Shown piece by piece: positions 6,308 through 28,975 of a stretch of 32,000 bases of DNA. The DNA is from Geobacter sulfurreducens PCA (GTDB lineage: Bacteria > Desulfobacterota > Desulfuromonadia > Geobacterales > Geobacteraceae). The stretch spans positions 2,310,001 through 2,342,000 of the forward strand of contig NC_002939.5 of NCBI RefSeq assembly GCF_000007985.2, written 5' to 3'. Below the pieces are notes generated by a model that had not been told where the DNA came from, searched no databases, and worked only from the letters and a program-made list of their open reading frames with translations. The translations under genes and the position numbers were made by a program. Positions within the stretch are counted from its first letter, which is position 1. Each line of letters opens with the position of its first letter.

Positions 6308-6330
6308 TGGAGCGGGAAACGGGATTCGAA
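6308..6330. repeat. distal att-type direct repeat (copy of tRNA-Gly 3' end)
   Basis: 23/23 identity with 27346-27368. The flanks diverge immediately on the outer side, and on the inner side after one mismatch (GCCACA vs CCCGCG). Confidence 0.8.
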
Positions 6331-8599: not shown

Positions 8600-8607
8600 G
8601 GTAACTC

Positions 8608-11205: not shown

Positions 11206-11220
11206 GCTCTCTGCCTCGGC

Positions 11221-15033: not shown

Positions 15034-15044
15034 GGCGGTCCCAT

Positions 15045-15884
15045 TCAGGTTGATGATAGCGTTGCCTGTGCAAGCTTTTGTTCTTCACGTTGTGAAATTA
15101 TCAGTTCCAGCTGTTCGATGGCCTTTTTGAAGACATCTGAACTGGCTGAAACAAAAGATTGAGCAGTAGTTACATGGGTATTCGCCCACGCGTAGGACAT
15201 TATTCTAAGCCCGTGAGCATCAATATCCTCTGGAGGAGTTGAATCATCAGGACGGTCAGCACGATGGACAATCAGATTGCGACGTAGAACGAGACCATTG
15301 AGTCTACCCCTAAGCTCAGTGGCTTGGACGCCAGTCAGCTTAGTAATTTCACCCCAGAAATCGCGAACAACAAAAATTTTGGCAATCTCATCTATCTTGC
15401 TAGTGTCATACAACGTTCCTCTTTCAAAGCGGTTCAGGATTATCTGCTGCAACCTAACATCTGGATCTCCATATCCTTCTAAAGACAAATAATCATCCAG
15501 AGTCAGGGTAATATTTCGAAGTGATTCATCTGCTTTGCGACCCTTTGCACGAATAATGGTCAATACGTTTTCCCGCAAGACATCCCAAAAGAAGGATTCC
15601 AGAGCAGCACTTGCGACGAGAACAGCCTGACGAAGAAGAAAATTCAGCCCTTCATTGGCGGTAAGGCATGATGGTAGAGGTACAGTTGCCTTTACACTGC
15701 AAAGTAAATTGTCATTTTTCGCATGGTGCAAGGCTGAACCTGATGCCAGCTCCAAACGCTCACAAACTGCCAACTCAAAAGGCTTACCAGGATCATATGG
15801 ACGAAGGTCCCTGAAAAGCTGGTAGAGTTGGAGTAGATGTTCTGCTATCGCAAAATTCTGAATAGCCAGATCATAGGCGCGCAT
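15045..15884 (-). CDS. extra BREX-embedded protein with R-x4-H (HEPN-like) motif; function unknown
   Basis: 279 aa, ATG start, same strand. Gaps are 7 nt from the brxC stop and 11 nt to the pglX start. RRNLIVHRAD at aa 201-210 (nt 15255-15284) fits the HEPN Rx4-6H signature. Visibly more AT-rich than brxC. Confidence 0.8.
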   Translation of the reverse strand: MRAYDLAIQNFAIAEHLLQLYQLFRDLRPYDPGKPFELAVCERLELASGSALHHAKNDNLLCSVKATVPLPSCLTANEGLNFLLRQAVLVASAALESFFWDVLRENVLTIIRAKGRKADESLRNITLTLDDYLSLEGYGDPDVRLQQIILNRFERGTLYDTSKIDEIAKIFVVRDFWGEITKLTGVQATELRGRLNGLVLRRNLIVHRADRPDDSTPPEDIDAHGLRIMSYAWANTHVTTAQSFVSASSDVFKKAIEQLELIISQREEQKLAQATLSST

Positions 15885-15891
15885 ACCGTCC

Positions 15892-18800
15892 TCACTCCAG
15901 GATTATGGTTCCGCCCTGGGCGAGGACTTTGGAAAGGCGCTCCCGCAGGTTAGTGATGAAATCCTCCAACTCATCCTTGCTGGTGATGCGACCGGGATAA
16001 AGCCTGGCCACCGCGACCCGCTCAATCTTTTCTTCCGGAGCAGCCAGTTCCAGGATGCGACGAAGCACGTCTCTGCCGACTGCCTCCACCGCAGCCAGGT
16101 CGCTCTCCAGCTGGGCCAGGGTGGCGCCGGTCCGTTGACATACCGTAGCCCCATGGGGAAGGTCGAGAACAGCCTCAGCCTTCAGGGTCAGCGGCTGGAG
16201 AATAAGGTCCAGCTGTTCCTGTGCGATATCGGGGTCTTCGGCAACGGCGAGCCATTCGGGACGCCCCTTGATCTGGTCAAGAGCTGCTGTGTAGGCAGCT
16301 TTGCGCTTTTCAAACAGGTTCTCGTACAACGTTCGGTAGGCATTGCTGAGAGATTCACTGTAAAAGCGGAGGTTATCGATCCGGGCAAGGGCATCTTCCG
16401 ACTGTAACGTCTCACCCAGTTTTTCGGCCGCATCCTTCAGCTCTGGATCGTCATTATTCAGGACGAGAACAGGCCATTGTTCCATCAAAACCCGTCGGGC
16501 TCGTGCTATGGCCTGGATATTTTCATCGGTGGCCGCTTTATCCAATGCAAAAGACTGCCGACGCCCCTCAAGATAAGCCTTGCCATCGCCTGCCAGGGTT
16601 TTCACGCAGTCATCGGCGGGCATCTCCAGAATACCCTCGACCCAATTAAGCTGTTCCTGCACAATCTTGGCACCGGGCAAACTGAGAGCGCCCAGGCGGG
16701 CGGCCAGAGGGAGGAGCTTTTCGCGGTCGGAAACTACAATCTGCTTGAATGCCTGGGCAATCGCCCCCTCCTCGATATCCACATCCCTACCGGAGATTTC
16801 TTCATACATCCGCGCTGCATTGGCTAGGACTTTGAGATCGAGCGCCTCACGCGGTGAAAAAGAAGCAGACCGAAACGCAGGATTGTTCACGAACGGGACT
16901 CGCGAGGTCGGCTCGGTATAGTTACGGTATTTGCGTCCCTGATGGGTAACCTCTATGGCGCCGCCGCGGAAAAGGATGGCAAGTCCCAGGCGGATGGACT
17001 CCCGCTCCCAGGCGTAGCCGAGGCCGCTGAAGTGGGACTCCAGCATTTTTCCGGTTATCCGGTTGCCGTATGCATGTTCACGCTTCAGGTAGTCGAGAAG
17101 TTCCCGACAGAGCTCGCAGCCAAGGTTAGGCACAAAGCGGTCGGCCTGCTTTATGACGAGGCTCCGCTCGGCCTTGTCGTGGTAGAAGATCTGAGGAAGG
17201 CCGTTGAGGTTAGCTGAAGTGAGAAACTTCACCGGCTCATCGCCGTTGAGCCTGAGCACCCCGACCTCCAGTTTCGGGTAGAGGACCGGTACCGCCCTCT
17301 CAAGCAGCGTACCAAGGGACTCGGAAAGGGACGAACCGAGTACCGGGGCGTCGTAGCTGACTCCGCTGAAGAAGGCGTTCCCCCCCTCGATGCAGGCGAG
17401 AAGCTTGGAGCGAAGATTTCTTTGGGTACGATCGCGCCGGCTTTTTTCATCAGCGAGACAGCCGGTCTCCTCAACCGTCAGACGCTGCTGTGCTGCGAGC
17501 CGGTCATATTCCCCGATCATCTCTCGCGAACGGAAGAGCTCAGTTACGAGGGAGTTGATTTCGTCGGTGAGCGTTGCCACCCAGAACAGCTCAGTTGTTT
17601 TGGAGACGCTCGCCTCGCGGGCGTCGACCAGGGTATCCTGATGCTCCTCCCTGGCCGTAAGGAGGATGTTGAGCGGAATTTCCCCCTCTGACTCCACCCA
17701 CTCGCCATTGACAAGTAAGCTGGTGCGGAAGCCACGGAGGTCCTTGTAGCGGTAGGTACGCAGTTTCGGCTCAGAAAAAATCTCGCGAATCAACTCTCGA
17801 TGAATTCGGTTGCGATCGGCCTCACGAGGGTCGCGCCCGTTGCGTTGCGTTTCCCAGTTCTTCTCCTGAACGGTGAGAAGTTTGTACCCTTCCTCGGATT
17901 GGCGGATAAACTGCGCTTCTTCAAGCTCCTTGAGGGCAGCCACCACGTCTTTGGTCAGTGGGTTTGCTTCTATGGACGGATGGAGCACAACCGCGATGTT
18001 ATGGGGAGTCCTTGGCAGGTCCTTGACGGACTCAAGGAGTGCGATCGCCTTCACGACCTTATGGGCAAGCGGGTTACCCGGCAATCGCTGGGCAACGTTG
18101 GCCACCTCGCGGGAGACCTCGGTGGGGAGCAGATTGCCGACCTCCAGCAGTTCATAGACCTTGTCCAGCGTGACGAGCGTACCGATGGGCTGCTCGGCCA
18201 GGCGCGTGCGGTCATTGATCATCATCTGCTGGGCCTGCTTGATGATCGTCCGGTTGCTGCCGCCGACGTGCCGATGGGCGCCCCGCTTGAGGCGCAACCC
18301 GGCAACGATGTCGATACATAGATCGATCTGGTAGGGCAGATAAGGATAGAGCCTGACAAAGGATGATCGATTGATTTCCAGGTTCCGATGGGTGCGTTCC
18401 AGAGTGCAGCACTGCTTGATTCTGGGTTCATCGGCATCGAAACGTTTACCGATGAGGTCCACCGCTCCGGCCTTTTTCTTCAAGACACGTTCGCTGGTGA
18501 CTTCGGTTATGTCGGATTGCTTGAGATCCACCGTGATACGGAAACGGTCCTGGAGACGCGCCAACTCGATTTTTTTGGAGTCGAGGGCCGTGACCACTTC
18601 GTTCAGCTTTTCCTGCGAAGTGACGACGATCCAGAATGGCGAAACAGCCTCCTGGCGTTCGGTCCGGTTTTTCCCTTCGACGCCAAATGCCTGGATAATT
18701 GCCTGAAGATCGAGCATCTTGTCCACACTGCGAGAAACATACTGTCCCACCTCGTCGATTATGAAGATAAGGGCCTTGCCAGGATGGCGGCGCGCACACA

Positions 18801-19536
18801 ATTCAAAGGCTCGACGGGCCAGCTTGTTCGGGTCGACATCGGCCCGGCCGGCTCCGATTCCCTGGGCATACGAGTCGGCAGTAGGGTAGGTTCTCGGGTC
18901 GAGATCGTGTAGCGCGGCACCGGCCTCATTGATTGCCAGCCCCAGCTGGCGGCGTTTCTTCCACTCCGATCCGTGCAATTCCAAGAACTTCCGTTCGAAA
19001 GCTTCGAGACGACCGTCTCCCTCCAAAGTTATCTCCAGTTCGGCCAGATCGAAGTCTTCCGCATAACCCAACTCCCGGAGCAGCGCGCGATACATGATTT
19101 CTGTGAGACGGTCATTGGTGGCGCGCACACCGCGATCCATGGAAACGTCAAAAATGACCGCATGGAAAGGGATTCGCATGGTAACGAGATCGAGCAGGTC
19201 TACGACGCGGGCATCTCGCAGCCTTTTCTTGAAGAGCTCGGTAGCAGTTGTTGCGCCTACCTTCTGCTGGGCGACAGTGTAGCCAAGGATCTTGGCGAAA
19301 GATGATTTACCTGAACCGAAGAAACCTGAAACCCATACGCCAATCCCCTCTCGAGGTGTAGACGGACCGGCAGCTATCTCGCGGTAAACCTCGGCAAATT
19401 GGTCCTTAATTGAATCCGTCGCGATATACTCTTCGAGCTCATTTTGGACAGTAGCCTCGTTCGCCTGGTCAACTTTGATGACCTCTTCGATGGTACGATC
19501 GATGGGTCTTTCAAAGACATCAGCAATCCTGTTCAT
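15892..19536 (-). CDS. brxC: BREX P-loop ATPase BrxC/PglY
   Basis: 1214 aa. Walker A in VWVSGFFGSGKSSFAKILGY and Walker B-like LIFIIDEVGQY. ATGA start/stop overlap with brxB. Confidence 0.93.
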   Translation of the reverse strand: MNRIADVFERPIDRTIEEVIKVDQANEATVQNELEEYIATDSIKDQFAEVYREIAAGPSTPREGIGVWVSGFFGSGKSSFAKILGYTVAQQKVGATTATELFKKRLRDARVVDLLDLVTMRIPFHAVIFDVSMDRGVRATNDRLTEIMYRALLRELGYAEDFDLAELEITLEGDGRLEAFERKFLELHGSEWKKRRQLGLAINEAGAALHDLDPRTYPTADSYAQGIGAGRADVDPNKLARRAFELCARRHPGKALIFIIDEVGQYVSRSVDKMLDLQAIIQAFGVEGKNRTERQEAVSPFWIVVTSQEKLNEVVTALDSKKIELARLQDRFRITVDLKQSDITEVTSERVLKKKAGAVDLIGKRFDADEPRIKQCCTLERTHRNLEINRSSFVRLYPYLPYQIDLCIDIVAGLRLKRGAHRHVGGSNRTIIKQAQQMMINDRTRLAEQPIGTLVTLDKVYELLEVGNLLPTEVSREVANVAQRLPGNPLAHKVVKAIALLESVKDLPRTPHNIAVVLHPSIEANPLTKDVVAALKELEEAQFIRQSEEGYKLLTVQEKNWETQRNGRDPREADRNRIHRELIREIFSEPKLRTYRYKDLRGFRTSLLVNGEWVESEGEIPLNILLTAREEHQDTLVDAREASVSKTTELFWVATLTDEINSLVTELFRSREMIGEYDRLAAQQRLTVEETGCLADEKSRRDRTQRNLRSKLLACIEGGNAFFSGVSYDAPVLGSSLSESLGTLLERAVPVLYPKLEVGVLRLNGDEPVKFLTSANLNGLPQIFYHDKAERSLVIKQADRFVPNLGCELCRELLDYLKREHAYGNRITGKMLESHFSGLGYAWERESIRLGLAILFRGGAIEVTHQGRKYRNYTEPTSRVPFVNNPAFRSASFSPREALDLKVLANAARMYEEISGRDVDIEEGAIAQAFKQIVVSDREKLLPLAARLGALSLPGAKIVQEQLNWVEGILEMPADDCVKTLAGDGKAYLEGRRQSFALDKAATDENIQAIARARRVLMEQWPVLVLNNDDPELKDAAEKLGETLQSEDALARIDNLRFYSESLSNAYRTLYENLFEKRKAAYTAALDQIKGRPEWLAVAEDPDIAQEQLDLILQPLTLKAEAVLDLPHGATVCQRTGATLAQLESDLAAVEAVGRDVLRRILELAAPEEKIERVAVARLYPGRITSKDELEDFITNLRERLSKVLAQGGTIILE

Positions 19537-20132
19537 TTATCCACTCCGTATATTTTGACCCGATAGTTGTACACGCCGAGATTAGCCTCCGAAGGGAGGT
19601 CAAAAAATTTCAGATCCGTCCCAGCCTCAGCGCTCCCCGGATAAAAAAGAATGACCGGCACTTTTGTCCTGCGATGCAGCCCATCGAGAAGACTAGAGCA
19701 GCGATAGATAAATGGAGCGAAGCCGCCGGCACGGACCAGGAAAACGATATCACGGTCGTGATCGAACCCTTTGATACGTTCCAGTACTTCATCGGCTATA
19801 GGACGGTAGTCTTCGGAACTGAGAAGACGATTTATATGTTCCTCAGCAGCTTGGAATCCCCTGATGGACTCAGTTTTGAAGAGATAGTCCGTACCCTCGA
19901 ACCGGCGCACGATACCCCACACAAGTCGTGAGATTGAGAGGAACGCTACTTTGCGGCCATGATTCTCAGAAAGGGAATAGGCCAGCAAACGGAGACGCTT
20001 GCGCAGCTGGAACTCTTCTTCCGGAGAGTAGCGGAAAATCGCGAAGGGCATATCGCTGTGGGCCGCAATCCGCATTGGCTCAGCGACCAGATCCTGGCGT
20101 AATAGATCAAGATTCTGTTCCAAAGATGACAC
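19533..20132 (-). CDS. brxB: BREX protein BrxB (DUF1788 family)
   Basis: 199 aa, GTG start preceded by AGGA. Size, position between brxA and brxC, and N-terminal pattern (LDLLRQDL...MPFAIFRYSPEEE) are typical of DUF1788/BrxB. Confidence 0.85.
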   Translation of the reverse strand: MSSLEQNLDLLRQDLVAEPMRIAAHSDMPFAIFRYSPEEEFQLRKRLRLLAYSLSENHGRKVAFLSISRLVWGIVRRFEGTDYLFKTESIRGFQAAEEHINRLLSSEDYRPIADEVLERIKGFDHDRDIVFLVRAGGFAPFIYRCSSLLDGLHRRTKVPVILFYPGSAEAGTDLKFFDLPSEANLGVYNYRVKIYGVDK

Positions 20133-20925
20133 GTATGTAGTCCTTGAAGTCGTTTGTCGGAAACTCTATCCGGTGGACACGACCAGCCGCCTGATAGTGC
20201 AACCAGCCATGCTGGTGTGCCTCGAAAAAAAGCCGCTCCACTTCCGGGCCAGCCAACAAGAACAATTTCCAGTCCGAATGTTCCACCAGCTCGCGCGCCC
20301 CGATCCCCATCAGGTTAAGGAGAAAGGCAATCAAACAGAAGGTCTCGATTGGCAGATGGCCGTGCACAAGCCTCTTGTTCACGGCACCTTCGAGAATCGC
20401 AAAGTCGCGGAGTGCGGCCAGGATTCCCCTTGCTACTTTTAGTTGCACCGTGGGAGACCAGACTCTACCGCATGAACGGAGCGTGTTATTGATCCAGGAT
20501 GCTGTTTCTTCCGTTCGTACTGCCCGGTCGGAAGTTTTCGCCTTTTCTACAAGCTCTTCCGTCACATATGCATAGAGGATAGGTTCTGCCCGCGCGGTTA
20601 TCCAGTAATAGAATGGTCGAATTATCTCGATGCTTGGGTGTGCTTCCTCAAGTGCTCTGGCGAGTTTCCACGCATCCTGCGGCGAACCTTTCAGGAATCT
20701 CGGTAAGAATGCACGTCTATAGGTGTCTGCGACTCGCGAACGAGTGGCCTTGTGCAAAATCTCGCCAGCCTGACTTTCCGGTTTAGCAACAGCCTCTGTC
20801 CACTGACAAACCAACTGCCGCATGTCGTCCAGCAATGCTCCTCCTTTTTGGAGGCGAGTTGTAAATATTGCATCATTGGTCAGCATCAAACTTATCCTCA
20901 TATACCGAATCGTTTTTTTTACCAT
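20107..20925 (-). CDS. brxA: BREX protein BrxA (DUF1819 family); start uncertain
   Basis: The ORF is open to 20991, but its first ~13 codons lie inside the palindromic repeat 20953-21125. Candidate starts are ATG 20925, 20901 and 20886 (the last has AGGA 8 nt upstream). First gene of the BREX operon; overlaps brxB by 26 nt. Confidence 0.75.
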   Translation of the reverse strand: MVKKTIRYMRISLMLTNDAIFTTRLQKGGALLDDMRQLVCQWTEAVAKPESQAGEILHKATRSRVADTYRRAFLPRFLKGSPQDAWKLARALEEAHPSIEIIRPFYYWITARAEPILYAYVTEELVEKAKTSDRAVRTEETASWINNTLRSCGRVWSPTVQLKVARGILAALRDFAILEGAVNKRLVHGHLPIETFCLIAFLLNLMGIGARELVEHSDWKLFLLAGPEVERLFFEAHQHGWLHYQAAGRVHRIEFPTNDFKDYIRVIFGTES

Positions 20926-20952
20926 GAATACTTTTACCAGGCCATAAATTTT

Positions 20953-21125
20953 CCTGATTAGCACCAATCTTCCGCAAGCCTCCACAAACATTCCCTCCCC
21001 CTTGACGGGTTAGGGTGGGGGTGACAGTGCCACGATCACAGCCAGTTGCAACTTCACCCACCCCCTGCCCCCTCCCGTCAAGGGAGGGGGAGATTCCTGG
21101 TGGCTGAAGCTTAGTGCTAATCAGG
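20953..21125. repeat. ~173-bp palindromic MITE/REP-like element
   Basis: Perfect 12-bp terminal inverted repeat CCTGATTAGCAC (20953-64) / GTGCTAATCAGG (21114-25). Inner arms are CCCTCCCCCTTGACGGG (20993-21009) vs CCCGTCAAGGGAGGGGG (21074-90), and GGGTGGGGGTGA vs TCACCCACCCCC. The whole unit can fold as one long imperfect hairpin. Confidence 0.7.
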
Positions 21126-21148: not shown

Positions 21149-21538
21149 TCATTGAAGGAACTGCTCACGGAATGCATTCTCGATGGCGGCGAAAAATGCA
21201 TCATTAGTGGCGTTCCTGCCACCGTCAAGGACGCTTCCATTGTAGATATTGCCAGTCTCTTCTCCACTTGCCACATGGGTAAACGTTACTGCTGCCGCGA
21301 CTACCATCATCGAATGGGATTCATCCGGGCCCTTAATGTGAAGGTGCTCCCTTGAACCCAAACACGTACTGATTCCAACACCATGCTTCGCTAGTACCGG
21401 CAGAACCAGCCGCACGATGTCAACCTGTTGTCCCATCCTCGGATCTCTGAGCTGCTCCCGTACCCAGCCAAGCTCATTCCTGATCTTGTCCATTGCCTTA
21501 TCAATCTCCTGTTTCCCGCCTTTAGCTGCTTCATTCAT
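21149..21538 (-). CDS. hypothetical protein (129 aa), second gene of a coupled pair upstream of BREX
   Basis: ATG preceded by GGGAGGTG. ATGA overlap with the upstream gene's stop. No recognisable domain. Confidence 0.65.
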   Translation of the reverse strand: MNEAAKGGKQEIDKAMDKIRNELGWVREQLRDPRMGQQVDIVRLVLPVLAKHGVGISTCLGSREHLHIKGPDESHSMMVVAAAVTFTHVASGEETGNIYNGSVLDGGRNATNDAFFAAIENAFREQFLQ

Positions 21539-21900
21539 TTGACACCTCCCGTAATCCCCGCTGCAACCTGAGCACGTTTGATTGACTGCAATCCGACACG
21601 CTTGAACATAGGCAACACTACCACTGCCCCCCTACCATTTAGAATTTGCTGAATCTTGACCCGGAACTCGCCGAGAAAATGCGCAAACTCCGCGTCGGGA
21701 AACGCCCCACTGTCACCCGTATCCCGTTGACGACGACTGACAAATCCGAATAGCGCCAGACGGTGGAATGAAAACTCATCATCCATCAACAGCCGTTGCC
21801 ACTGCCGAGCCACCATTTTCGGCATTGTTGCAGTGGTTACATCCAGGTGCCCTTCGATCCACGCCGTCATTCCCAATTCCCTGTTCCTGCTGATTGCCAT
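21535..21900 (-). CDS. hypothetical protein (121 aa), first gene of a coupled pair upstream of BREX
   Basis: ATG preceded by GGGGAGG at 6 nt. Divergent from the XRE regulator gene. No recognisable domain. Confidence 0.65.
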   Translation of the reverse strand: MAISRNRELGMTAWIEGHLDVTTATMPKMVARQWQRLLMDDEFSFHRLALFGFVSRRQRDTGDSGAFPDAEFAHFLGEFRVKIQQILNGRGAVVVLPMFKRVGLQSIKRAQVAAGITGGVK

Positions 21901-21946
21901 ACATAACCTCCCCAGGCCTTTCTTGAGGCCTCAGCCTGATTCATTT

Positions 21947-22005
21947 AAGTGAATTATACCATTCACTTTTATAAAAGTAAACAACAAAATTCACAGTTAT
22001 GAATT
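21947..22005. promoter_or_regulatory. candidate operator sites in the divergent promoter region
   Basis: AAGTGAAT-N6-ATTCACTT (21947-21968) and AATTCA-N6-TGAATT (21988-22005) share the half-site ATTCAC. They lie in an AT-rich 110-bp gap between the 121-aa gene and the XRE gene. Confidence 0.4.
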
Positions 22006-22046
22006 AAAACTTGAACCTCAGCGTGGTTCTTGCTATACAACAGGGC

Positions 22047-22442
22047 ATGAACGAAACAGCACAGCCGGAAAAACGCAAACGGGGAGAAGTCGTCGACGCT
22101 GCCGTCTTTGTCGAAAGGCTCAAGAGCTTGATGGCTGACAAAGGACTCTCGTCGGCAGAACTCGCCGACCGCGCCGATCTAGCCAGGTCGGCCCTAACTC
22201 AGTTTTTCGGAGGTGAGCGAAAGCCGAGTGCCGACGCCCTCGTAAAGTTGGCGAACGTCTTGGACTCTTCGACCGACTATCTCTTGGGTCGTCGAGACAG
22301 CACTGATGTCGCGGCTCTCCTCCAAAACGACAAGATCATGGAGCTTATAAGCCTCTTCAGCGAGCTTTCAGTAGCCGACCAGGAGCGCGTTCTCGAGATG
22401 ATCCGCCTGATGAAGGGAACCGCCGGGGCATCTCAAGAGTAG
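22047..22442 (+). CDS. XRE-family helix-turn-helix transcriptional regulator
   Basis: LKSLMADKGLSSAELADRADLARSALTQFFGGERKPSADALVKLANVLDSSTDYLLGR is a classic HTH_3/Cro-CI domain. The ORF opens at TTG 22011; the ATG at 22047 is the more likely start. Confidence 0.82.
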   Translation: MNETAQPEKRKRGEVVDAAVFVERLKSLMADKGLSSAELADRADLARSALTQFFGGERKPSADALVKLANVLDSSTDYLLGRRDSTDVAALLQNDKIMELISLFSELSVADQERVLEMIRLMKGTAGASQE

Positions 22443-22487
22443 ACCTGTCAGGAACCGTTACTCGGCGAGCGCTTCTGCTGCGCTTGC

Positions 22488-22871
22488 CTACCGCTCCCTC
22501 GTTTCAATACCCTGGAAGTGTTTCATCTGGTTGCCCGACAATACCCGTGTACTAACAACGCCTCCTTTCTCCAGAAGGTGCTGGAGGTACTTGGGGTACC
22601 CCATTCCTTTGGTGCAGCAGTCGCACTGAACCCTGTCGAAAAATGCCATGGCTTGCGGATCATGGTTGATCGCCGAGTGCACTCCGAAAAGAGCCATCAG
22701 TGCCTCGCGTTCACTGACGTTATCCTGATCCTCCAAGATATCCAGGACATACTCATAGAGGGTTCCCGACCCGTTCTTGAAGCCATTGAAGTACCTCTCG
22801 ATACTCCCGTCCCCAACCTCCATCGCCACTTTTTCCAACAACTGTAATGCCTTGATCACTTCTTTTTTCAT
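22488..22871 (-). CDS. hypothetical protein (127 aa)
   Basis: The internal ATG at 22871 is preceded by AAGGAGAAGG (the ORF is open to 22898). Convergent with the XRE gene. No recognisable domain; contains a CDCC cysteine patch. Confidence 0.55.
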   Translation of the reverse strand: MKKEVIKALQLLEKVAMEVGDGSIERYFNGFKNGSGTLYEYVLDILEDQDNVSEREALMALFGVHSAINHDPQAMAFFDRVQCDCCTKGMGYPKYLQHLLEKGGVVSTRVLSGNQMKHFQGIETRER

Positions 22872-23086
22872 CGCCTTCTCCTTTCGTGTTCCTGCCACCG
22901 GAGCCTCCTCCAGTGCGTCTGCAATGATCTACATCTATGCTATTCCTGCCAGCAACGCAGATCCCATACATGATGTCCTAAGCATCCAATCTTATCCCCT
23001 AGCTCCATTCCGTACTCTCTGCCCCCGGGAAGAAGCTGAAAGGAGCGCCCATCCAGGCTCATCCGCAATGCCCACCGCTTTAGCCG

Positions 23087-23608
23087 TTACCCCGCTCCCG
23101 AGAGCGAGCGCTTCTTCTCCTCGCAGACCTTCTTCAGGTAGACGTGGCTGATCTCCTCGTGGTGGTGCTTCTTGATGTACCGCGCGATTTCCCGCCAGCT
23201 CATCTTCTCTTCCTCACGCAGACGACAGATAAGCTTGAAGTACCGCAGCAGAATCCGCTCCTTTGTGGGACTCGGCTTCTGCACACGTCTGCTTGCCTTG
23301 ATCCGCGCAGCCCGGAGTTTTGCCGCCTTGTCGGCATGCTCCGATGTGACGTTCCGCTGCCGCTCGAACTCTTCGATGGACAGCATTTTATCGAGCGCAA
23401 GCAGCAGCATCGCGTACGAGAATTCTTCCTGTGTCACGGTGCCCCGGTACGCTTCACGGTACTGCCGCATGCAATCTCTTTGCAGCCGATGCGCCTCAAT
23501 GCGTACCGGCTCCGCGAGGCTGGAGTAGTAGCGGATAAGTTTCTTTCTCCGCTTTGCCGTGAGGCCGAGAATGTTTTCGATGTTCCTTGGGTCGTAGTCG
23601 ATTGTCAT
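23087..23608 (-). CDS. hypothetical protein with putative C-terminal HTH (173 aa)
   Basis: ATG preceded by GGGAGGGA at 6 nt. The basic, helical protein has a C-terminal segment KMSWREIARYIKKHHHEEISHVYLKK resembling resolvase/Hin-type HTH. Confidence 0.6.
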   Translation of the reverse strand: MTIDYDPRNIENILGLTAKRRKKLIRYYSSLAEPVRIEAHRLQRDCMRQYREAYRGTVTQEEFSYAMLLLALDKMLSIEEFERQRNVTSEHADKAAKLRAARIKASRRVQKPSPTKERILLRYFKLICRLREEEKMSWREIARYIKKHHHEEISHVYLKKVCEEKKRSLSGAG

Positions 23609-23719
23609 CTGATATCCCTCCCTAAAGTAGTGGTGTTTACCACTACTGTGCAGGCATGCACCCCCCCCTCCCCTCTCGGTTCTCCCTGTCCATTTTGCAT
23701 GTAAACTGAGCTGTTAATT

Positions 23720-23881
23720 GAGGCTGTTAACTCAGTTAACAGCCTCTGGCGGACGCAGTCCGCCCAAGCCCAGGATTTTCCTGGGCTTGTTGCCTTTCGC
23801 CTGTCGGTTTAGTGGGGCGATTTCGGCCACACTAAACCGACAGGCCGACAGGGCTGTCGCGGTTTTCCGCCAGGAAAACCG
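23720..23881. repeat. array of six abutting perfect hairpins (candidate oriT/ssDNA-active site, recombination site or structured RNA)
   Basis: The first five stems are 23720-31/35-46 (12 bp), 23748-54/58-64 (7 bp), 23765-75/79-89 (11 bp), 23799-814/830-845 (16 bp) and 23846-51/54-59 (6 bp). The sixth is 23860-68/73-81 (9 bp). Most are separated by 0-1 nt, and no ORF covers them. Confidence 0.6.
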
Positions 23882-24412
23882 TAAAAAATGACCCAAACCA
23901 CCCCCAAAAGCCCCTCTTTTACCCCCAATTCCCCCCTCCAGTTGTTTCGCAATCGCACATTACTAGACATCTAACCCGTTCAGGGATTCCGCCAACTACG
24001 GTTGGTGGACAAGGTAGCCGGGTCATTACCCCCGCCGGCGAACCAAACGTGAGTGGTAACCGAGATATCGTTCCTCGGGCCACGAAAGGGGGCACGCTTC
24101 AGAACGAAACGGGACCCTGCTGGTATCGTCAGTTTCCGGCCCTTATGGGTGTCGGACCGACAGACAGCAGGATTGAGCCGATGTTTTTTCGCGACCGCCG
24201 CAGGCGGCGGTCGCGACGCGGCTCAGATGGCACGAGCAGCCATTCCCATTCCGGTCCAATCGTCTTTCTGCCCTTTTGTGTGAGGTCAGCAGCCTCGGTT
24301 CCTTCGGATACCGACCGCGACTGAGACGACGAGACAAGCAGGCTCATGGGTTACCGCTTCCCTAAAAAGCGTGGAGTTCAACCAAGGTTCGTCCCTGCCG
24401 GGGGGTAGACAA

Positions 24413-25411
24413 ATGCCGGCATCGATCAAGGAAGGGGCAGTCATGAGAGGTTCACCTACCTATCAGGTACAGCAAATCTTTGACAGATCAGGCATCAACC
24501 AGATCGGTCAGTCAAAACACGACGCGAAGCAATCCATAAGAGCAGAGCTCAACGAGCAGGGTAAACCCTGCGGTTGCCACGAACTCGGGCAAAACATGGG
24601 CATCCATTCCTATGCCACCGCCGACGCCTACCGGGACGTCTGGCGACAGATTCTGGAGTATGCACGCGCAGAGTACGGCGTCCGGGACGTCGAAAAACTT
24701 ACCGACCAACACGTATCCGGCTTTCTTGAACAGAAGGTCTCCGAATCCTTGGCCTACGCCACATTTCAGCAGTATGCGGCGGCAACAGAGAAGCTCGCCG
24801 TAGCGCTCAATGGGTACGCGGAGCGCCACGGAACCGGACAGCACTATGATTTTCATGGCGCGTTGAAAGATGTGCGCGAGACCGCCAGGGAGCTGCTCGT
24901 CCGTTTCGATGGTTCTCGTGCCTATGACCGGCCGACGGACCTCGTGGCGGCAGTGGGTAAGGAAAGTCACAACTTAGCTGCGTGCATCCAGCACGAGTCA
25001 GGGACGCGGGTTCACGAACACTCGCAGATCAAGGCAGAGGCCCTGCGGGGCACTCGCGTCGACCGTTTCACGGGCGAAGAGCGGGGATATTTCGCAATGG
25101 AAGGGAAAGGTGGAAAGGAAGGGCTCAAAGCTGTCTCAGTCGAGACCTACCAGCGTCTGGAGCAGCACATCGCAGTGCACGGCGTGTTCACGATCAATGA
25201 GGGCAGCTATCGGGAGAGCCTGCGCAGAGCGGCTGAGATCTCGGGGCAACGATACGAGGGGAGCCATGGCCTGCGCTGGAATTGGGCACAGGAGCGCTAT
25301 GCAACTCTCCAGAATCATGGGCAGAACGAGCTCCAGGCCATGTGCGAGGTCTCAAGGGAAATGGGGCACGAACGGGCTGACATCACGATGCACTACCTTC
25401 GGGGCAAGTGA
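24413..25411 (+). CDS. tyrosine recombinase (second, non-canonical integrase-family protein); start uncertain
   Basis: A catalytic set can be read: ESGTRVHE (Arg I), EGKGGKEG (beta-hairpin Lys), HGLRWNW (HxxR), MGHERADITMHYL (His and Tyr). The ORF opens at GTG 24371. ATG 24413 and ATG 24443 are alternatives; the latter has AAGGAAGGGG upstream. Confidence 0.75.
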   Translation: MPASIKEGAVMRGSPTYQVQQIFDRSGINQIGQSKHDAKQSIRAELNEQGKPCGCHELGQNMGIHSYATADAYRDVWRQILEYARAEYGVRDVEKLTDQHVSGFLEQKVSESLAYATFQQYAAATEKLAVALNGYAERHGTGQHYDFHGALKDVRETARELLVRFDGSRAYDRPTDLVAAVGKESHNLAACIQHESGTRVHEHSQIKAEALRGTRVDRFTGEERGYFAMEGKGGKEGLKAVSVETYQRLEQHIAVHGVFTINEGSYRESLRRAAEISGQRYEGSHGLRWNWAQERYATLQNHGQNELQAMCEVSREMGHERADITMHYLRGK

Positions 25412-25438
25412 CACAGGTAAGCGGGTAAGTATTTTTGT

Positions 25439-25723
25439 ATGAGCGAGTTGGGGCCACTCTATTTTGATGCCGAGCAGATGATCGGACTCGACGAGTTCGC
25501 AAGGCGTATGAACGCCTGCGCGAACACGGTCAGATACTGGATCAGGACCGGCAAGCTCGTGGAGGGTCGGCACTTCATCCGACAGGGGCGGAAGTACCTG
25601 TTTCCTTGGTCCCCCCAACTACTTGCACTGATTTTTGACGACTGGAGGCCAGTGGTGCCCCCAAAACGGCCGTTGCTCGACAGCCGCCGGCCAAACCGGC
25701 AGCCGCTCAAACTGCGCTGTTGA
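25439..25723 (+). CDS. excisionase / AlpA-like MerR-superfamily HTH protein
   Basis: 94 aa. IGLDEFARRMNACANTVRYWIRTGKLVEGRHFIRQGRKYLFPW matches the excisionase-family DNA-binding domain pattern. Located immediately upstream of the integrase. Confidence 0.75.
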   Translation: MSELGPLYFDAEQMIGLDEFARRMNACANTVRYWIRTGKLVEGRHFIRQGRKYLFPWSPQLLALIFDDWRPVVPPKRPLLDSRRPNRQPLKLRC

Positions 25724-25803
25724 TATCAATTGTGATGTGCGCTACCCTTTTCTGGCAAACGAAAATCAGCCGAAAGGAGGTAGCGCGATGAAAGGATCAT
25801 GAC

Positions 25804-27330
25804 ATGAAGAAGAAAGACTCGGGCGAGACCCCGGAAAAGCCGTGGCACGTGAAGCCCTCGTTCGGAAGCCTCTACACCATGAAGGGCTCGAAGTACATCT
25901 ACATCTCCATGAACTACTACAAGCAGCGGCTGCGCTTTCCCACAGACCGGGTGGATACCCCGGAGAACTGGGAGGAGCTGCGGGAGTTCATGGAAAAAGT
26001 GGGTGAAAAGATCAAGCGTCGGACGTTCTGCTTCGCCAAGACCTTCTACTGGCTGGACGAGAAGACGAAGGCCCACTTCACGGCGCTGGAGGGAAGCGAC
26101 TACAAGCCGGAACCGGAGCACGTCTACTTCGGTGAGTATTGCGAACAGTGGATGGAGCGGAAGATTCCGACCTTTTCGTCGGTGACGAAGCAAAGGGATT
26201 ACCGGGAAGCGCTCACCTCCCGCATCCTGCCCTACTTCGGGGAGATGACCTTCTCCCAGGTTACCGCCACGGCGGTAGAGACGTTCATTGACAATCTAAA
26301 GAGAGTAAACCGTGCCAAAAATCCCAAGAAGACCAAGGGGGCAAAGCCCCTGTCGGTGAAACGGGTCAAAAACATCATCGGTCCAATGTCAAAGGTCTGG
26401 GAATCGTCCTGCAACGACTACAACTGGAATCTCCGCGATCCGTTTTCCGCAGTAACCCAGAAGTACACGGAGTTGACTGACAGGGCGCTTCAGGAAAAAG
26501 AGCGGCAGGCCGCTCTGAGGAGTGATGAGGAGGAAGATGTCTCGACGAGGGAGATCTTCCTGCTTGAAGAGTGGCAGATACTCTGTTCCTACATCGATCC
26601 CCACTATTACCCCGTGCTGGAACTGCTGATGCTGGGGATGATCGGCTCGGAGTTGGAGGCACTGCAAAAGCGGCACATAAAGGGTGGCGTGCTGACAGTC
26701 CGCTGTGCGGTAGCGAGGGACCGGAAGGGGATGCGGCACCTGAAGTTCAAGCCGAAGAACTGGTATCGCAAGCGGGACGTCCCCCTGACCGGCAGAGTAC
26801 AAAGCCTTCTGGAACAGGCGATGGCTACGGCGACGAGGGACGGGGTTGTTACCTTCGCCAACGACATCGCCATCCCGGCCAACCAGTTCGTCCTCACCAT
26901 GAAGGACGGCAGCCCCTTCAACTACAACTCATTCCGCAAGACGGTGTGGAACAAGGCCTTGAAGGCGGCAGGCATGGAGCCTCGGGTTCCTTATGCGGCC
27001 CGGCACACTCTGGTGCAGTGGTCGCTTCTGATCGGAATGACCAAGACCCGGCTCGTGGACCTGATGGGTCATTCGACCAAGAAGATGATCGACGAGGTGT
27101 ACGGGAGCTATCGGCAGGGACTGGTGGAGGAGAGGGAGCGGATTCTGGATTACCTGGGGGAAGACTTCCTCGCCCTGGAAGAGATGAAGCTTGCGTTCCC
27201 CGAGCGCTACCGGCGGCGGATGGCAACGACGGAGCCGGCCCATGAAACGGCGAAAGCCCCGGGCCTTCCCGCCACTTTTGGTCAAAGTTTTGGTCAAAGC
27301 CAGGGGCTCTATCCGGATAACTACCCGTAA
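25804..27330 (+). CDS. int: tyrosine integrase of island 1
   Basis: 508 aa. N-terminal arm-binding-like region (GSLYTMKGSKYIYISMNYYKQRLRFPT) and C-terminal catalytic AARHTLVQW (HxxR) ... LMGHSTKKMIDEVYGSY (His/Tyr). Ends 15 nt before the tRNA-derived repeat. Confidence 0.92.
   Translation: MKKKDSGETPEKPWHVKPSFGSLYTMKGSKYIYISMNYYKQRLRFPTDRVDTPENWEELREFMEKVGEKIKRRTFCFAKTFYWLDEKTKAHFTALEGSDYKPEPEHVYFGEYCEQWMERKIPTFSSVTKQRDYREALTSRILPYFGEMTFSQVTATAVETFIDNLKRVNRAKNPKKTKGAKPLSVKRVKNIIGPMSKVWESSCNDYNWNLRDPFSAVTQKYTELTDRALQEKERQAALRSDEEEDVSTREIFLLEEWQILCSYIDPHYYPVLELLMLGMIGSELEALQKRHIKGGVLTVRCAVARDRKGMRHLKFKPKNWYRKRDVPLTGRVQSLLEQAMATATRDGVVTFANDIAIPANQFVLTMKDGSPFNYNSFRKTVWNKALKAAGMEPRVPYAARHTLVQWSLLIGMTKTRLVDLMGHSTKKMIDEVYGSYRQGLVEERERILDYLGEDFLALEEMKLAFPERYRRRMATTEPAHETAKAPGLPATFGQSFGQSQGLYPDNYP
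27276..27299. repeat. tandem 2 x 12-bp TTTTGGTCAAAG (second copy pair of the island-end repeat)
   Basis: Read directly. Embedded in the last codons of int (encodes FGQSFGQS). Same core and orientation as 6459-6480. Confidence 0.55.
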
Positions 27331-27345
27331 ACACGGGGGAAAGAC

Positions 27346-27395
27346 TGGAGCGGGAAACGGGATTCGAACCCGCGACCTTCAGCTTGGGAAGCTGA
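27346..27395 (-). tRNA. truncated tRNA-Gly(CCC), 3' ~50 nt only (att-site remnant, not a functional tRNA)
   Basis: The reverse complement reads TCAGC-TTCCCAA-GCTGA (anticodon arm, CCC), AGGTC, GCGGG-TTCGAAT-CCCGT (T arm), TTCCCGC-T-CCA. The 25 nt 5' of this (TGAAAGACGCTGAAACATCAAATTG) cannot pair with the acceptor 3' strand and have no D-arm. Confidence 0.75.
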
Positions 27396-27530
27396 CAATT
27401 TGATGTTTCAGCGTCTTTCAAAAAGTTCCTGCCTTTATCATCACCCAACTCTATACCATTGACATATTTCATGTTTTACCTTATTTTCTGTATCCAGATG
27501 TTTCAGTCTGCCTCCCCGCTTGCCAACCAT

Positions 27531-27594
27531 AAAACGGATGCAAAACGGATGCAAAGGGGTCAAGCGACACTCAAAACGGATGCAAAACGGATGC
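27531..27594. repeat. 4 x 11-bp AAAACGGATGC as two tandem dimers (candidate integrase arm sites or int operator)
   Basis: Dimers at 27531-27552 and 27573-27594, separated by 20 bp and ending 8-20 nt before the integrase start codons. Confidence 0.55.
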
Positions 27595-27613
27595 AAAGAA
27601 AATGGGGAGAACG

Positions 27614-28975
27614 ATGAAACAATTTACCGACCGTTACCTCACCTCTCTCAAACCTCAAGATAAAAAATATGTCGTAAGAGAGGGCCGAGGATTCGCGATC
27701 CAGGTGCTGCCTTCAGGAACAAAGACATTTATGTATATCTTTGAACTGAACAAGCAGAAGGGGTACCTACTGCTCGGCAATTATCCCGCCATGTCCTTGG
27801 GTGATGCCCGGATAGCTTACAACGACGCATATAAACTCGTCAAGAACGGCATCGATCCACGCGAGGAAAAAAGAACAGCTATCGAGGAACAATCTCGATT
27901 GGCAAATGAGGCTAGACTTCAAGCTGAAGCTGCAGCCCTTGCTGCTGAGAAATTGGAAAAAGATTCCTTTGATTCCCTGATAGAGGATGAACTCCCCGAA
28001 GGATACACCCCGATAACCGTAGAACAGCTCGCTGCGATATGGTACGTCAAATACTCTAAGGAGAATCATTCAGTTCGATGGCGAGAAACTATCCTTAGCG
28101 CTATCAAGACCCACATCATTCCCGGTATCGGCAAAATGGAAATTTCCTCTGTCAGACACAAGCATGCTGTTTCTCTCATCGAGCAAATTGCATCCAAGGT
28201 CCCGGGATCGGCTCGTAACGTGATGAAATTTGGCAGACAAATGTTCAAATATGCCTGTCGGCAAGAGTGGGCGGAGATTCAGCCGTTCCAGGAGATCACA
28301 GCATCTGTCCCCAAGATTGCCCCCAAAACTGACGACCGGCATCTTGATGACGACGAAATCGTGAAGGCGTGGAAAGAAATCAGCAAGGGACCAAGCTCTA
28401 CCGAGGTCAAGCGTGCGCTTAAATTGATTCTGGTAACCGCTCAGCGCCCCGGAGAAGTTGCACAAATTCACCGTGATCAGATCAAGGACAGATGGTGGAC
28501 TATCCCTGCAGAGGTTGCTGGCAAAAATGAACGTGAGCACAGAGTCTACTTGACTGACACTGCTCTGGAGCTGATCGGACAAGGTAAAGGGTACATCTTC
28601 TCATCTGGCCGAGGGAAAAGAGGCCATATTTCCGAGAACACTCTTTCACAAGCCATAAATCGAGGTTATTTGGACGAAGATGTTGTGAAAGTTGTTGGGA
28701 ACAGAAAAATCAAAGCGCGCAAAGAACCTTACTTCGGGATGAAGCCATGGTCGCCGCATGATCTTCGCCGAACCGCACGCACAAATATGGCACGAGTTGG
28801 CATTACAGACGAAGTTGGCGAAGAAGTCATAAATCACATCAAGCCAGGCATAGTCGGCGTTTACAATAAATATCGTTATGACAATGAGAAAAAGGACGCC
28901 CTTTTGAAGTGGGAAGCCTTGTTACTGAACATTCTGTCACCCAAACCGCAGGATAGTAATGCAGATGGAGAATAG
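27614..28975 (+). CDS. int: P4-like tyrosine integrase (DUF4102-type arm-binding N-terminus)
   Basis: MKQFTDRYLTSLKPQDKKYVVREGRGFAIQVLPSGTKTFMYIF is the typical P4-integrase N-terminus. Catalytic LVTAQRPGE (Arg), HDLRRTART (HxxR) and VINHIKPGIVGVYNKY (His/Tyr). The ORF also has an ATG at 27602. Confidence 0.9.
   Translation: MKQFTDRYLTSLKPQDKKYVVREGRGFAIQVLPSGTKTFMYIFELNKQKGYLLLGNYPAMSLGDARIAYNDAYKLVKNGIDPREEKRTAIEEQSRLANEARLQAEAAALAAEKLEKDSFDSLIEDELPEGYTPITVEQLAAIWYVKYSKENHSVRWRETILSAIKTHIIPGIGKMEISSVRHKHAVSLIEQIASKVPGSARNVMKFGRQMFKYACRQEWAEIQPFQEITASVPKIAPKTDDRHLDDDEIVKAWKEISKGPSSTEVKRALKLILVTAQRPGEVAQIHRDQIKDRWWTIPAEVAGKNEREHRVYLTDTALELIGQGKGYIFSSGRGKRGHISENTLSQAINRGYLDEDVVKVVGNRKIKARKEPYFGMKPWSPHDLRRTARTNMARVGITDEVGEEVINHIKPGIVGVYNKYRYDNEKKDALLKWEALLLNILSPKPQDSNADGE

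Follow-up and report, generated by a model that had tools for sequence, protein, structure and literature searches.

A candidate repressor-controlled switch at the cargo junction of a tRNA-Gly-associated island carrying BREX in Geobacter sulfurreducens PCA

Introduction

In a 32,000-nucleotide stretch of Geobacter sulfurreducens PCA (contig NC_002939.5, positions 2,310,001 to 2,342,000; this whole stretch is called the window below), three small genes lie directly upstream of a type 1 BREX operon: a gene for an XRE-type helix-turn-helix (HTH) regulator and, divergent from it, two overlapping genes coding for proteins of 121 and 129 amino acids (aa). Does this triad serve BREX, or does it belong to something else that carries BREX? 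We compared the window with other loci containing members of the family of the 121-aa protein, numbered L001 to L025. This led us to a reading that we hold to be moderately probable, namely that the triad is an immunity-type regulatory switch of a mobile integrative island and not a BREX accessory, its promoter pointing into variable cargo.

The three genes are the following:

21149 to 21538, minus strand: 129-aa gene, second gene of the predicted repressed operon (open reading frame, ORF)
21535 to 21900, minus strand: 121-aa gene, first gene of the predicted repressed operon and founder of a rare all-helical family (ORF)
22047 to 22442, plus strand: XRE repressor, 131 aa, with an HTH and a two-helix C-terminal domain, CapH/ImmR-like (HTH_3 and capH profile)

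An initial annotation, made from the letters of the sequence, had placed three genes here, and ORFs were indeed found at 21149-21538 (minus), 21535-21900 (minus) and 22011-22442 (plus, XRE). What it had said of the small genes was also recovered: stop and start codons overlap as ATGA at 21535-21538, by which the two genes are translationally coupled in the manner of type II toxin-antitoxin systems, and strong Shine-Dalgarno sequences precede both (GGGGAGG ahead of the 121-aa ATG, GGGAGG ahead of the 129-aa ATG). Since both are under purifying selection (ratio of non-synonymous to synonymous divergence, dN/dS, of 0.07-0.34 against orthologues, the 129-aa gene alone giving 0.07-0.17), we consider them genuine genes. 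The divergent XRE gene with its HTH_3 domain was likewise found, but not the 110-bp gap that had been given: the likelier start of XRE is the ATG at 22047 (131 aa), corresponding to the start called in the L001 orthologue, and the divergent region is therefore more likely 146 bp long.

The triad lies in the backbone of an island

The triad is located in an island of about 21 kb (window 6308-27368), which is made up of a 6.2-kb backbone and BREX cargo of about 15 kb and lies at a tRNA-Gly site. A related island is present in L001, a Geobacter-like 28-kb metagenome contig labelled Geobacter metallireducens, where we observed the order tRNA-Gly, 510-aa integrase, 94-aa excisionase-like protein, 323-aa tyrosine-recombinase-like protein, 173-aa, 136-aa, XRE, 120-aa and 129-aa proteins, followed, in the place of BREX, by Rhs toxin genes. 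By blastn, the window and L001 share 81% DNA identity over 21153-27391, that is from the end of the 129-aa gene, 4 nt inside its 3' end, to the tRNA. When the junctions are aligned, the window, L001 and L004/L005 match as far as the 129-aa stop codon, beyond which three unrelated downstream sequences begin.

The initial annotation had considered the triad as a possible BREX-associated unit. This view found no support, since this module and backbone are followed in L001 by Rhs genes and in L004/L005 by a third, again unrelated sequence; what stood of its regulatory-switch idea is the XRE-divergent promoter with palindromic operators. Because the backbone is shared and homology breaks at the 129-aa stop codon, the triad belongs to the backbone. 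Its adjacency to BREX comes from the architecture of the island and does not testify to a functional link.

Between the window and L004 we also observed a mosaic divergence: synonymous divergence (dS) is 0.14 for the 121-aa gene and 0.88 for the adjoining 129-aa gene, a contrast which suggests recombination near the cargo junction.

Contexts of the 121-aa family

Twelve distinct contexts were compared: the window, L001, L004/5, L007, L008/9, L010, L011-13, L014-16, L018-20, L021-23, L024 and L025. A homologous XRE gene is divergent from the operon with the 121-family gene in 11 of the 12, and in ten contexts XRE is directly adjacent and the 121-family gene is the first of its operon. In L021-L023 it is the third, after an 81-aa gene and an integrase gene. 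The gene that follows the 121-family gene is:

129-aa family: window, L001, L004/5, L021-23
HNH endonuclease: L008, L014
ParA-like ATPase: L024
unknown protein of 584 aa or 149 aa: L018, L025
nothing: L007, L011

In the other loci, the surrounding genes encode integrases, AlpA, primase-helicase, a ParM-like partition protein and resolvase. L025 lies where L001 does in the chromosome, next to the HMA/FtrD/MacB genes, and carries an integrase of its own as well as a second recombinase. A distant backbone was found in L010 (3525-13308); it has a 121-family member, a homologue of the 173-aa protein and a second recombinase that is split, with PDC-S10, PDC-S09 and a type I Zorya system as cargo. 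Because this distant backbone carries Zorya I and PDC-S09/S10, we conclude that the site downstream of the module collects defence and competition cargo.

The association with defence that the initial annotation had considered is limited to two of the 12 contexts (BREX in the window, Zorya I with PDC-S09/S10 in L010). A CI/Cro-type position in mobile elements, which it had named as the ordinary explanation, is largely what these loci display, yet defence cargo does follow in those two. As to the co-conservation of the two small genes, a local hidden Markov model search of all loci detected the 129 family after the 121 family in four contexts; the partner is absent in eight, so that the obligate co-occurrence of a type II toxin-antitoxin pair is not seen, yet the pair is co-conserved in one distant lineage. 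A distant 129-aa orthologue follows the 121-family gene in L022 (38% identity, E = 2e-28).

In the closest outgroup (L018 10705-11118, with equivalents in L019 and L020), the 121-family gene is followed by that of the unknown 584-aa protein and then by a gene for a 137-aa Xre_MbcA_ParS_C protein, which may be toxin-antitoxin-like cargo.

The XRE protein is a CapH-like repressor

The XRE protein matched HTH_3 in Pfam (1.5e-10) and the capH profile of PADLOC (9.3e-15), the latter with protein residues 33-136 on profile positions 7-100 of 103. An RstR subfamily model was also matched (1.4e-12, under that model's cut-off), and the best sequence match in the PDB is the HTH of the Xre-family regulator of ICEBs1 (7t8i). 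Its C-terminal motif recurs in the partner XREs of the other loci; common to these are, besides the HTH, a DYLLG motif and 'LS..d.ERVL' helices at the C terminus (alignment A9).

CapH is composed of an HTH and a C-terminal two-helix dimer/tetramer domain, oligomerisation being required for DNA binding, and the peptidase CapP inactivates it in the way ImmA inactivates ImmR (bioRxiv 10.1101/2022.04.27.489752). Regulators of the CapH+CapP type are reported beside various immune operons (bioRxiv 10.1101/2022.04.27.489752; PMC13373217). The XRE protein, with an XRE-type HTH and a short helical oligomerisation domain, has the composition of CapH and is a new member of a known repressor family.

We did not find the means by which such repressors are usually inactivated. 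XRE, with 131 aa and a 45-aa helical tail, matched HTH families only and no Peptidase_S24 self-cleavage domain. The 121-, 129-, 136- and 173-aa proteins gave no match to a zinc metallopeptidase of the CapP/ImmA/IrrE type in Pfam, PADLOC or NCBIfam, no HEXXH motif occurs in the 121- or 129-aa sequence, and no peptidase gene stands beside XRE among the listed neighbours in the 12 contexts.

Promoters and operators of the divergent region

The following elements were predicted in the divergent region:

21953 to 21981, minus strand: sigma-70-type promoter of the 121/129 operon, TTTACT, 17 nt, TG-TATAAT (promoter scan)
21938 to 21955, no strand: predicted operator O2, a palindrome, AATTCACTTAAATGAATC on the minus strand, its position and sequence kept in L001 and L004
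21988 to 22005, no strand: predicted operator O1, a palindrome, AATTCACAGTTATGAATT
22011 to 22039, plus strand: XRE promoter, TTGAAC, 17 nt, TATACA (read from the sequence; conserved in L001)
21914 to 21931, minus strand: small palindrome or hairpin of the 5' untranslated region, AGGCCT-N6-AGGCCT, between O2 and the 121-aa Shine-Dalgarno sequence

The predicted 121/129 promoter has 10 of 12 consensus matches and an extended -10 element and is conserved in L001 and L004; its type of layout is also present in L007, L008, L010, L014, L018 and L024. The ATTCAC-type inverted repeats already noticed in the initial annotation are real: GTGAAT-N6-ATTCAC occurs once in the window, with 0.04 occurrences expected by chance. 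O1 and O2 are 18-bp palindromes of the form ATTCA-N6-TGAAT, 50 bp apart from start to start. O1 lies just upstream of the -35 element of the 121 promoter, and 5 nt separate it from the -35 element predicted for XRE, while the last 3 nt of O2 are the last 3 nt of the -10 hexamer of the 121 promoter. They are the only sites of their kind in the intergenic region; one other match (two mismatches or fewer) is located at 11637, and the site search detected no further operator sites in the island that could form an XRE regulon.

This two-operator design, in which one site lies just upstream of -35 and a second begins in or right after -10, was observed in at least nine contexts (window, L001, L004, L007, L008, L010, L014, L018 and L024). 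The half-sites are TTCAC/GTGAA in L001, L004, L018 and L024, and ATTCCA/TGGAAT in L007, L008, L010 and L014; in each case, the second operator starts at the -10 hexamer or in its last bases. Repeated TTGCAA-type sites occur in a similar arrangement in L025. The layout is lambda-like, with an HTH repressor divergent from an early promoter and at least two operators that overlap the promoters and to which binding is predicted, and two sites five helical turns apart around a promoter would fit a CapH-type dimer-of-dimers repressor.

The predicted XRE promoter, missed by the stricter promoter scan, ends 7 nt before the ATG and no Shine-Dalgarno sequence is present, which suggests that the XRE mRNA is leaderless. 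The same geometry, a -10 element and then the ATG, is present in L001, L018, L024 and L025. The hairpin of the 5' untranslated region has a GGGCT/AGCCC stem in L001, pairing being retained via changes on both sides.

The two small proteins

Neither small protein matched a Pfam, NCBIfam, PHROG or PADLOC model, as the initial annotation had supposed from its own failure to recognise them, and profile and structure searches gave no family for either and no fold match for the model of the 121-aa protein. An exhaustive HMMER scan of 1.84 billion representative proteins recovered the 121 family as 23 clusters, of which 12 scored below 1e-10. A word-indexed homology search had found only two relatives each for the 121- and 129-aa proteins, and a 25-sequence profile gave only nine. 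The members are 100-138 aa long, with invariant W14, L19, W34, G52, F79, K82 and F99 and no catalytic-looking motif in the alignment (A4). Their grand average of hydropathy ranges from -0.06 to -0.7 and no membrane segment was found in the family. A PDB sequence-profile search with the family returned only noise, and neither tblastn of the 121-aa protein against plasmids nor tblastn of protein P0029 against phages gave a match. The AlphaFold2 model of the 121-aa protein, obtained with 10 sequences, has five helices (pLDDT 86, pTM 0.78). With a confident model and no structural relative, the family, and the predicted fold with it, are apparently new.

Members of the 129-aa family were found nowhere but in the window, the L001 group, L004/L005 and L021-L023. 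A scan of IMG/VR returned none, and that of the JGI metagenomes only an L001-equivalent contig. An AlphaFold2 model made from two sequences (pLDDT 51) was unusable, too poor for a structure search. A borderline match of the family profile in the PDB, the N-terminal domain of TP901-1 CI (E = 0.017-0.07), was not relied on. Our best reading is that the 129-aa protein is a lineage-specific accessory.

BREX cargo and the recombination end of the island

The other features of the island are listed here:

6308 to 6330, no strand: left 23-bp direct repeat TGGAGCGGGAAACGGGATTCGAA, distal island boundary (repeat search)
6569 to 20991, minus strand: type 1 BREX operon, brxA-brxB-brxC-(HEPN RiboL-PSP)-pglX-pglZ-brxL (Pfam)
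20992 to 21091, no strand: GC-rich imperfect palindrome of about 100 nt separating brxA from the 129-aa gene, cargo side of the junction (sequence)
22488 to 22898, minus strand: 136-aa backbone gene, conserved in L001
23087 to 23608, minus strand: 173-aa backbone gene, conserved in L001, with a weak HTH_32 match only
24371/24443 to 25411, plus strand: second tyrosine-recombinase-like gene (Pfam)
25439 to 25723, plus strand: excisionase-like 94-aa gene (Pfam)
25804 to 27330, plus strand: 508-aa integrase (Pfam)
27346 to 27412, minus strand: truncated tRNA-Gly-like fragment with the right 23-bp repeat, 27346-27368 (Rfam tRNA, 31.7 bits)

The BREX operon announced by the initial annotation is complete: Pfam identified all type 1 components, six genes in one operon, with BrxA (8e-26), BrxB (1e-21), BrxC as DUF6079 plus a weak BrxC winged-HTH match, PglX as Eco57I/N6_Mtase, PglZ (2e-20) and BrxL (1.6e-134; BrxL_N, BrxL_ATPase and Lon_C). 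The brxA start at 20991 is that of the longest ORF only, the Pfam match starting at residue 43. Between brxC and pglX lies a 279-aa HEPN (RiboL-PSP) gene (15045-15884, minus strand; Pfam 7.6e-10, no PADLOC match), which could encode an accessory effector of this BREX variant.

The palindromic repeat that the annotation had seen ahead of brxA was found at 20992-21091. As RNA it would fold with -90 kcal/mol (z = -5.2). The window has no second copy, and L001, L004 and L005 have none; because the element is missing at the equivalent junctions of these three loci, an integron-like attC reading was rejected. It could be a REP- or MITE-like element (repetitive extragenic palindrome or miniature inverted-repeat transposable element), an insulator or a processing site. 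From the stop codon of the 129-aa gene to brxA, the promoter scan found no promoter-like site; inside the 129-aa gene it found two weak ones. Since the 121/129 promoter points into the cargo and no good promoter precedes brxA, BREX may be partly expressed by read-through from this predicted promoter.

The island has what is expected of a tRNA-associated element, that is an integrase at a tRNA fragment, end repeats, and a backbone with a sharp junction to unrelated cargo. Both 23-bp repeats match the 3' end of tRNA-Gly, and the gene order of the recombination end is the same in L001. On the left, the host genes encode a SnoaL-like protein and a glycyl-radical enzyme with its activase. ARAGORN found no intact tRNA at the right end of the island, the place at which L001 has an intact tRNA-Gly; what the fragment retains of a tRNA-Gly(CCC)-like sequence is the anticodon arm and the T arm, while the 5' acceptor and the D arm are missing. 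In this region (27346-27620), the fragment is followed by four direct repeats of AAACGGATGCA and then a second, P4-type integrase (27602-28975), which suggests tandem or nested islands at the tRNA-Gly site.

Between the 173-aa gene and the second recombinase, a non-coding stretch of 760 bp (23609-24370), conserved in L001, contains several perfect or near-perfect palindromes with arms of 11-20 nt and could be a recombinase site or an origin. The second recombinase is also accompanied by a homologue of the 173-aa protein in L010 and on plasmid pGLOV01 of Trichlorobacter lovleyi; the recombinase alone is present on many small plasmids.

Discussion

Starting from the established genes, island boundaries, backbone/cargo junction, repressor family and conserved operator-promoter layout, we propose how the triad would work as a switch of the island. 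XRE, as a dimer or a tetramer, would most likely bind both palindromes, 50 bp apart. With O2 over the -10 element and start site and O1 upstream of -35, the 121-129 operon would be silent, and with O1 abutting the XRE promoter, the repressor would regulate its own synthesis, as in the immunity of lambda or ICEBs1. The 121-aa protein would be the conserved first output of the promoter across many mobile elements and a second regulatory component of the switch, possibly an antirepressor or a Cro-like commitment factor that acts via protein contacts and not through a classical HTH. Read-through into BREX would then be a by-product of the position of the cargo.

Several points weigh against this interpretation. 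In L007 and L011, the XRE-121 pair is surrounded by chromosomal genes, and no gene of a mobile element could be recognised within reach; these two contexts fit an autonomous two-gene cassette as well as a switch. L010 keeps both operators with no XRE gene nearby; they could have another binder, possibly the 121-family protein itself, or a repressor encoded elsewhere. In the window too, the predicted binding of XRE to O1 and O2 is deduced from palindromes and position only. That the 121-aa protein has a regulatory role is a guess based on its position, and also on its co-variation with the repressor family and on the missing peptidase. For this protein no HTH family was matched, Foldseek found no match to any HTH protein, and its model has no relative in the PDB or BFVD (best E > 2, TM at most 0.32). 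A conserved nucleic-acid-binding surface is not obvious in the family either, because the isoelectric point ranges from 5.0 to 11.1. The large hairpin ahead of brxA, which has no U-tract, intervenes in the possible read-through. Finally, the 121 family is very rare, so the context statistics rest on 12 loci, mostly metagenomic, and no relatives of the 129 family or of the second recombinase were found in 185,579 GTDB species genomes.

A bolder version of the regulatory-switch reading would make the CapH-like XRE and the 121-aa protein an undescribed two-component switch, in which the 121-aa protein replaces CapP/ImmA in inactivating the repressor or sensing for it, and the switch, its promoter pointing into the hotspot, renders the cargo of the island inducible. 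We put it forward as doubtful.

That the triad is a dedicated BREX regulator, in which the CapH-like repressor, with the small proteins as sensor or co-regulators, replaces BrxR and switches BREX on upon infection or DNA damage, seems to us unlikely. It is true that XRE matches capH, that CapH+CapP-type regulators are reported to lie next to immune operons (PMC13373217), and that the 121/129 operon is co-directional with brxA with no recognisable promoter between them. No WYL match was found among island ORFs of about 90 aa or more, in agreement with the initial annotation, and so the island offers no gene of the BrxR type. Against this, the identical module is also found ahead of Rhs genes and of other sequences, homology ending at the 129-aa stop codon, a CapP/M78 peptidase is missing, most 121-family members lie beside non-defence genes (HNH, ParA-like, integrase, primase-helicase), and the palindrome, with about 150 nt of cargo-specific DNA, separates the module from brxA.

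The two-gene regulator CapK/CapS, found upstream of immune operons with HTH-STAS-GHKL and STAS-wHTH architectures (PMC13373217), was also considered and rejected; domains of these kinds are absent here.

We regard as quite unlikely a toxin-antitoxin or abortive-infection cassette, in which the 121- and 129-aa proteins would form the pair, or XRE would silence a 121-aa toxin, with stabilisation of the island or killing of infected cells as the outcome. Two small translationally coupled genes, a location in defence islands (window, L010), and the XRE-121 pair alone among chromosomal genes (L011, L007) would agree with it, and tight repression by two operators would suit a harmful product. The toxin-antitoxin pair suggested by the initial annotation is nevertheless weakened: the 129-aa partner is missing from eight contexts, no toxin, antitoxin or PADLOC model was matched by either protein, and Foldseek gave no match for the 121-aa model. 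Furthermore, the 121 family has no conserved catalytic-type residues and no membrane segment, and the repressor gene is divergent, unlike in co-transcribed type II systems.

It is very unlikely that the pair has an early recombination function of the kind encoded in temperate-phage early operons, in which the 129-aa protein would anneal single strands as a minimal member of the ERF type, with the 121-aa protein as cofactor. Weak matches to the Erf-like PHROG 155 (E = 0.065 and 0.12; two of four members) and to Pfam ERF (0.15; one of four), a low-confidence predicted secondary structure of helix-helix-three strands-helix, a motif that by eye resembles the P22 Erf core, and the pair following an integrase in one operon in L021-L023 gave rise to this idea. 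By hhalign, comparison with seven phage Erf N-terminal domains yielded a probability of 0.9% (E = 0.063) over 43 columns only, tblastn of the 129-aa protein against 50,697 phage genomes found nothing, and the PDB profile search favoured the unrelated weak match to TP901-1 CI (E = 0.017); the ERF assignment was rejected as unsupported.

Least probable of all is an independent small anti-phage system merely sharing the island with BREX: defence islands do cluster unrelated systems, the families are uncharacterised and defence cargo lies downstream in two of the 12 contexts, but the module travels with the integrase backbone and not with the cargo, occurs in plasmid- or phage-like contexts with replication and partition genes, and its small proteins matched no PADLOC candidate.

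Returning to the reading as a switch of the island, its interest lies in a CapH-type repressor that has no peptidase, is paired with a small conserved protein and sits exactly at the boundary where the island exchanges cargo. Should transcription from the promoter extend into the cargo, the expression of BREX, Zorya or Rhs toxins would be decided by the mobile element and not by the defence system; if the two-component switch is true, the element would carry a portable 'controller of adjacent pathways'. Even without read-through into cargo, there remain a rare protein family that is new, an operator design that is conserved, and a family of islands in the Geobacter group whose cargo hotspot is precisely placed.

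Comparison with known systems

The triad resembles CapH+CapP, which regulates CBASS among other immune operons (Lau et al. 2022, bioRxiv 10.1101/2022.04.27.489752), ImmR/ImmA of ICEBs1 and DdrO/IrrE in having an XRE protein composed of an HTH and two helices, divergent from its presumed target operon. As for CapH, palindromic sites lie in the promoter, and the capH profile of PADLOC is matched nearly end to end. In contrast to these systems, no CapP, ImmA or IrrE is present in the island or beside XRE in the 12 contexts, and the conserved partner is a helical protein of 100-130 aa inside the predicted repressed operon. In ICEBs1, the same type of repressor controls the excision operon of a mobile element. 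In CapH+CapP pairs, damage to DNA sets off cleavage of the repressor, and the neighbouring operon is derepressed.

With lambda CI/Cro and TP901-1 CI/MOR, the triad shares the divergence of a repressor and an early operon from a short multi-operator region overlapping the promoters, as well as a small first early gene of conserved position; the XRE promoter is, like lambda PRM, probably leaderless. However, XRE lacks the S24 autocleavage domain of lambda CI, the 121-aa protein, unlike Cro and MOR, has no detectable HTH or structural relative, and the island contains no phage structural or replication genes. The location upstream of brxA and the possible repression of a defence operon recall BrxR/CapW; yet these have a winged HTH-WYL-WCX architecture, whereas no WYL or WCX domain is found here and the module is part of the island backbone, not specific to BREX.

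As in P4-like islands and satellites, an integrase lies by a tRNA, with end repeats, a conserved backbone and a delimited variable region (BREX, Zorya, Rhs toxins). The backbone itself is different, consisting of a second tyrosine recombinase and the 173-, 136-, 121- and 129-aa proteins, and no primase, capsid-redirection or transfer genes were seen in the 21-kb island. A tRNA-integrated island with a cargo hotspot is thus a known island type; what is new is the strict pairing of the 121 family with CapH-like repressors that have no CapP, the conserved two-operator design and the position of the module at the cargo junction.

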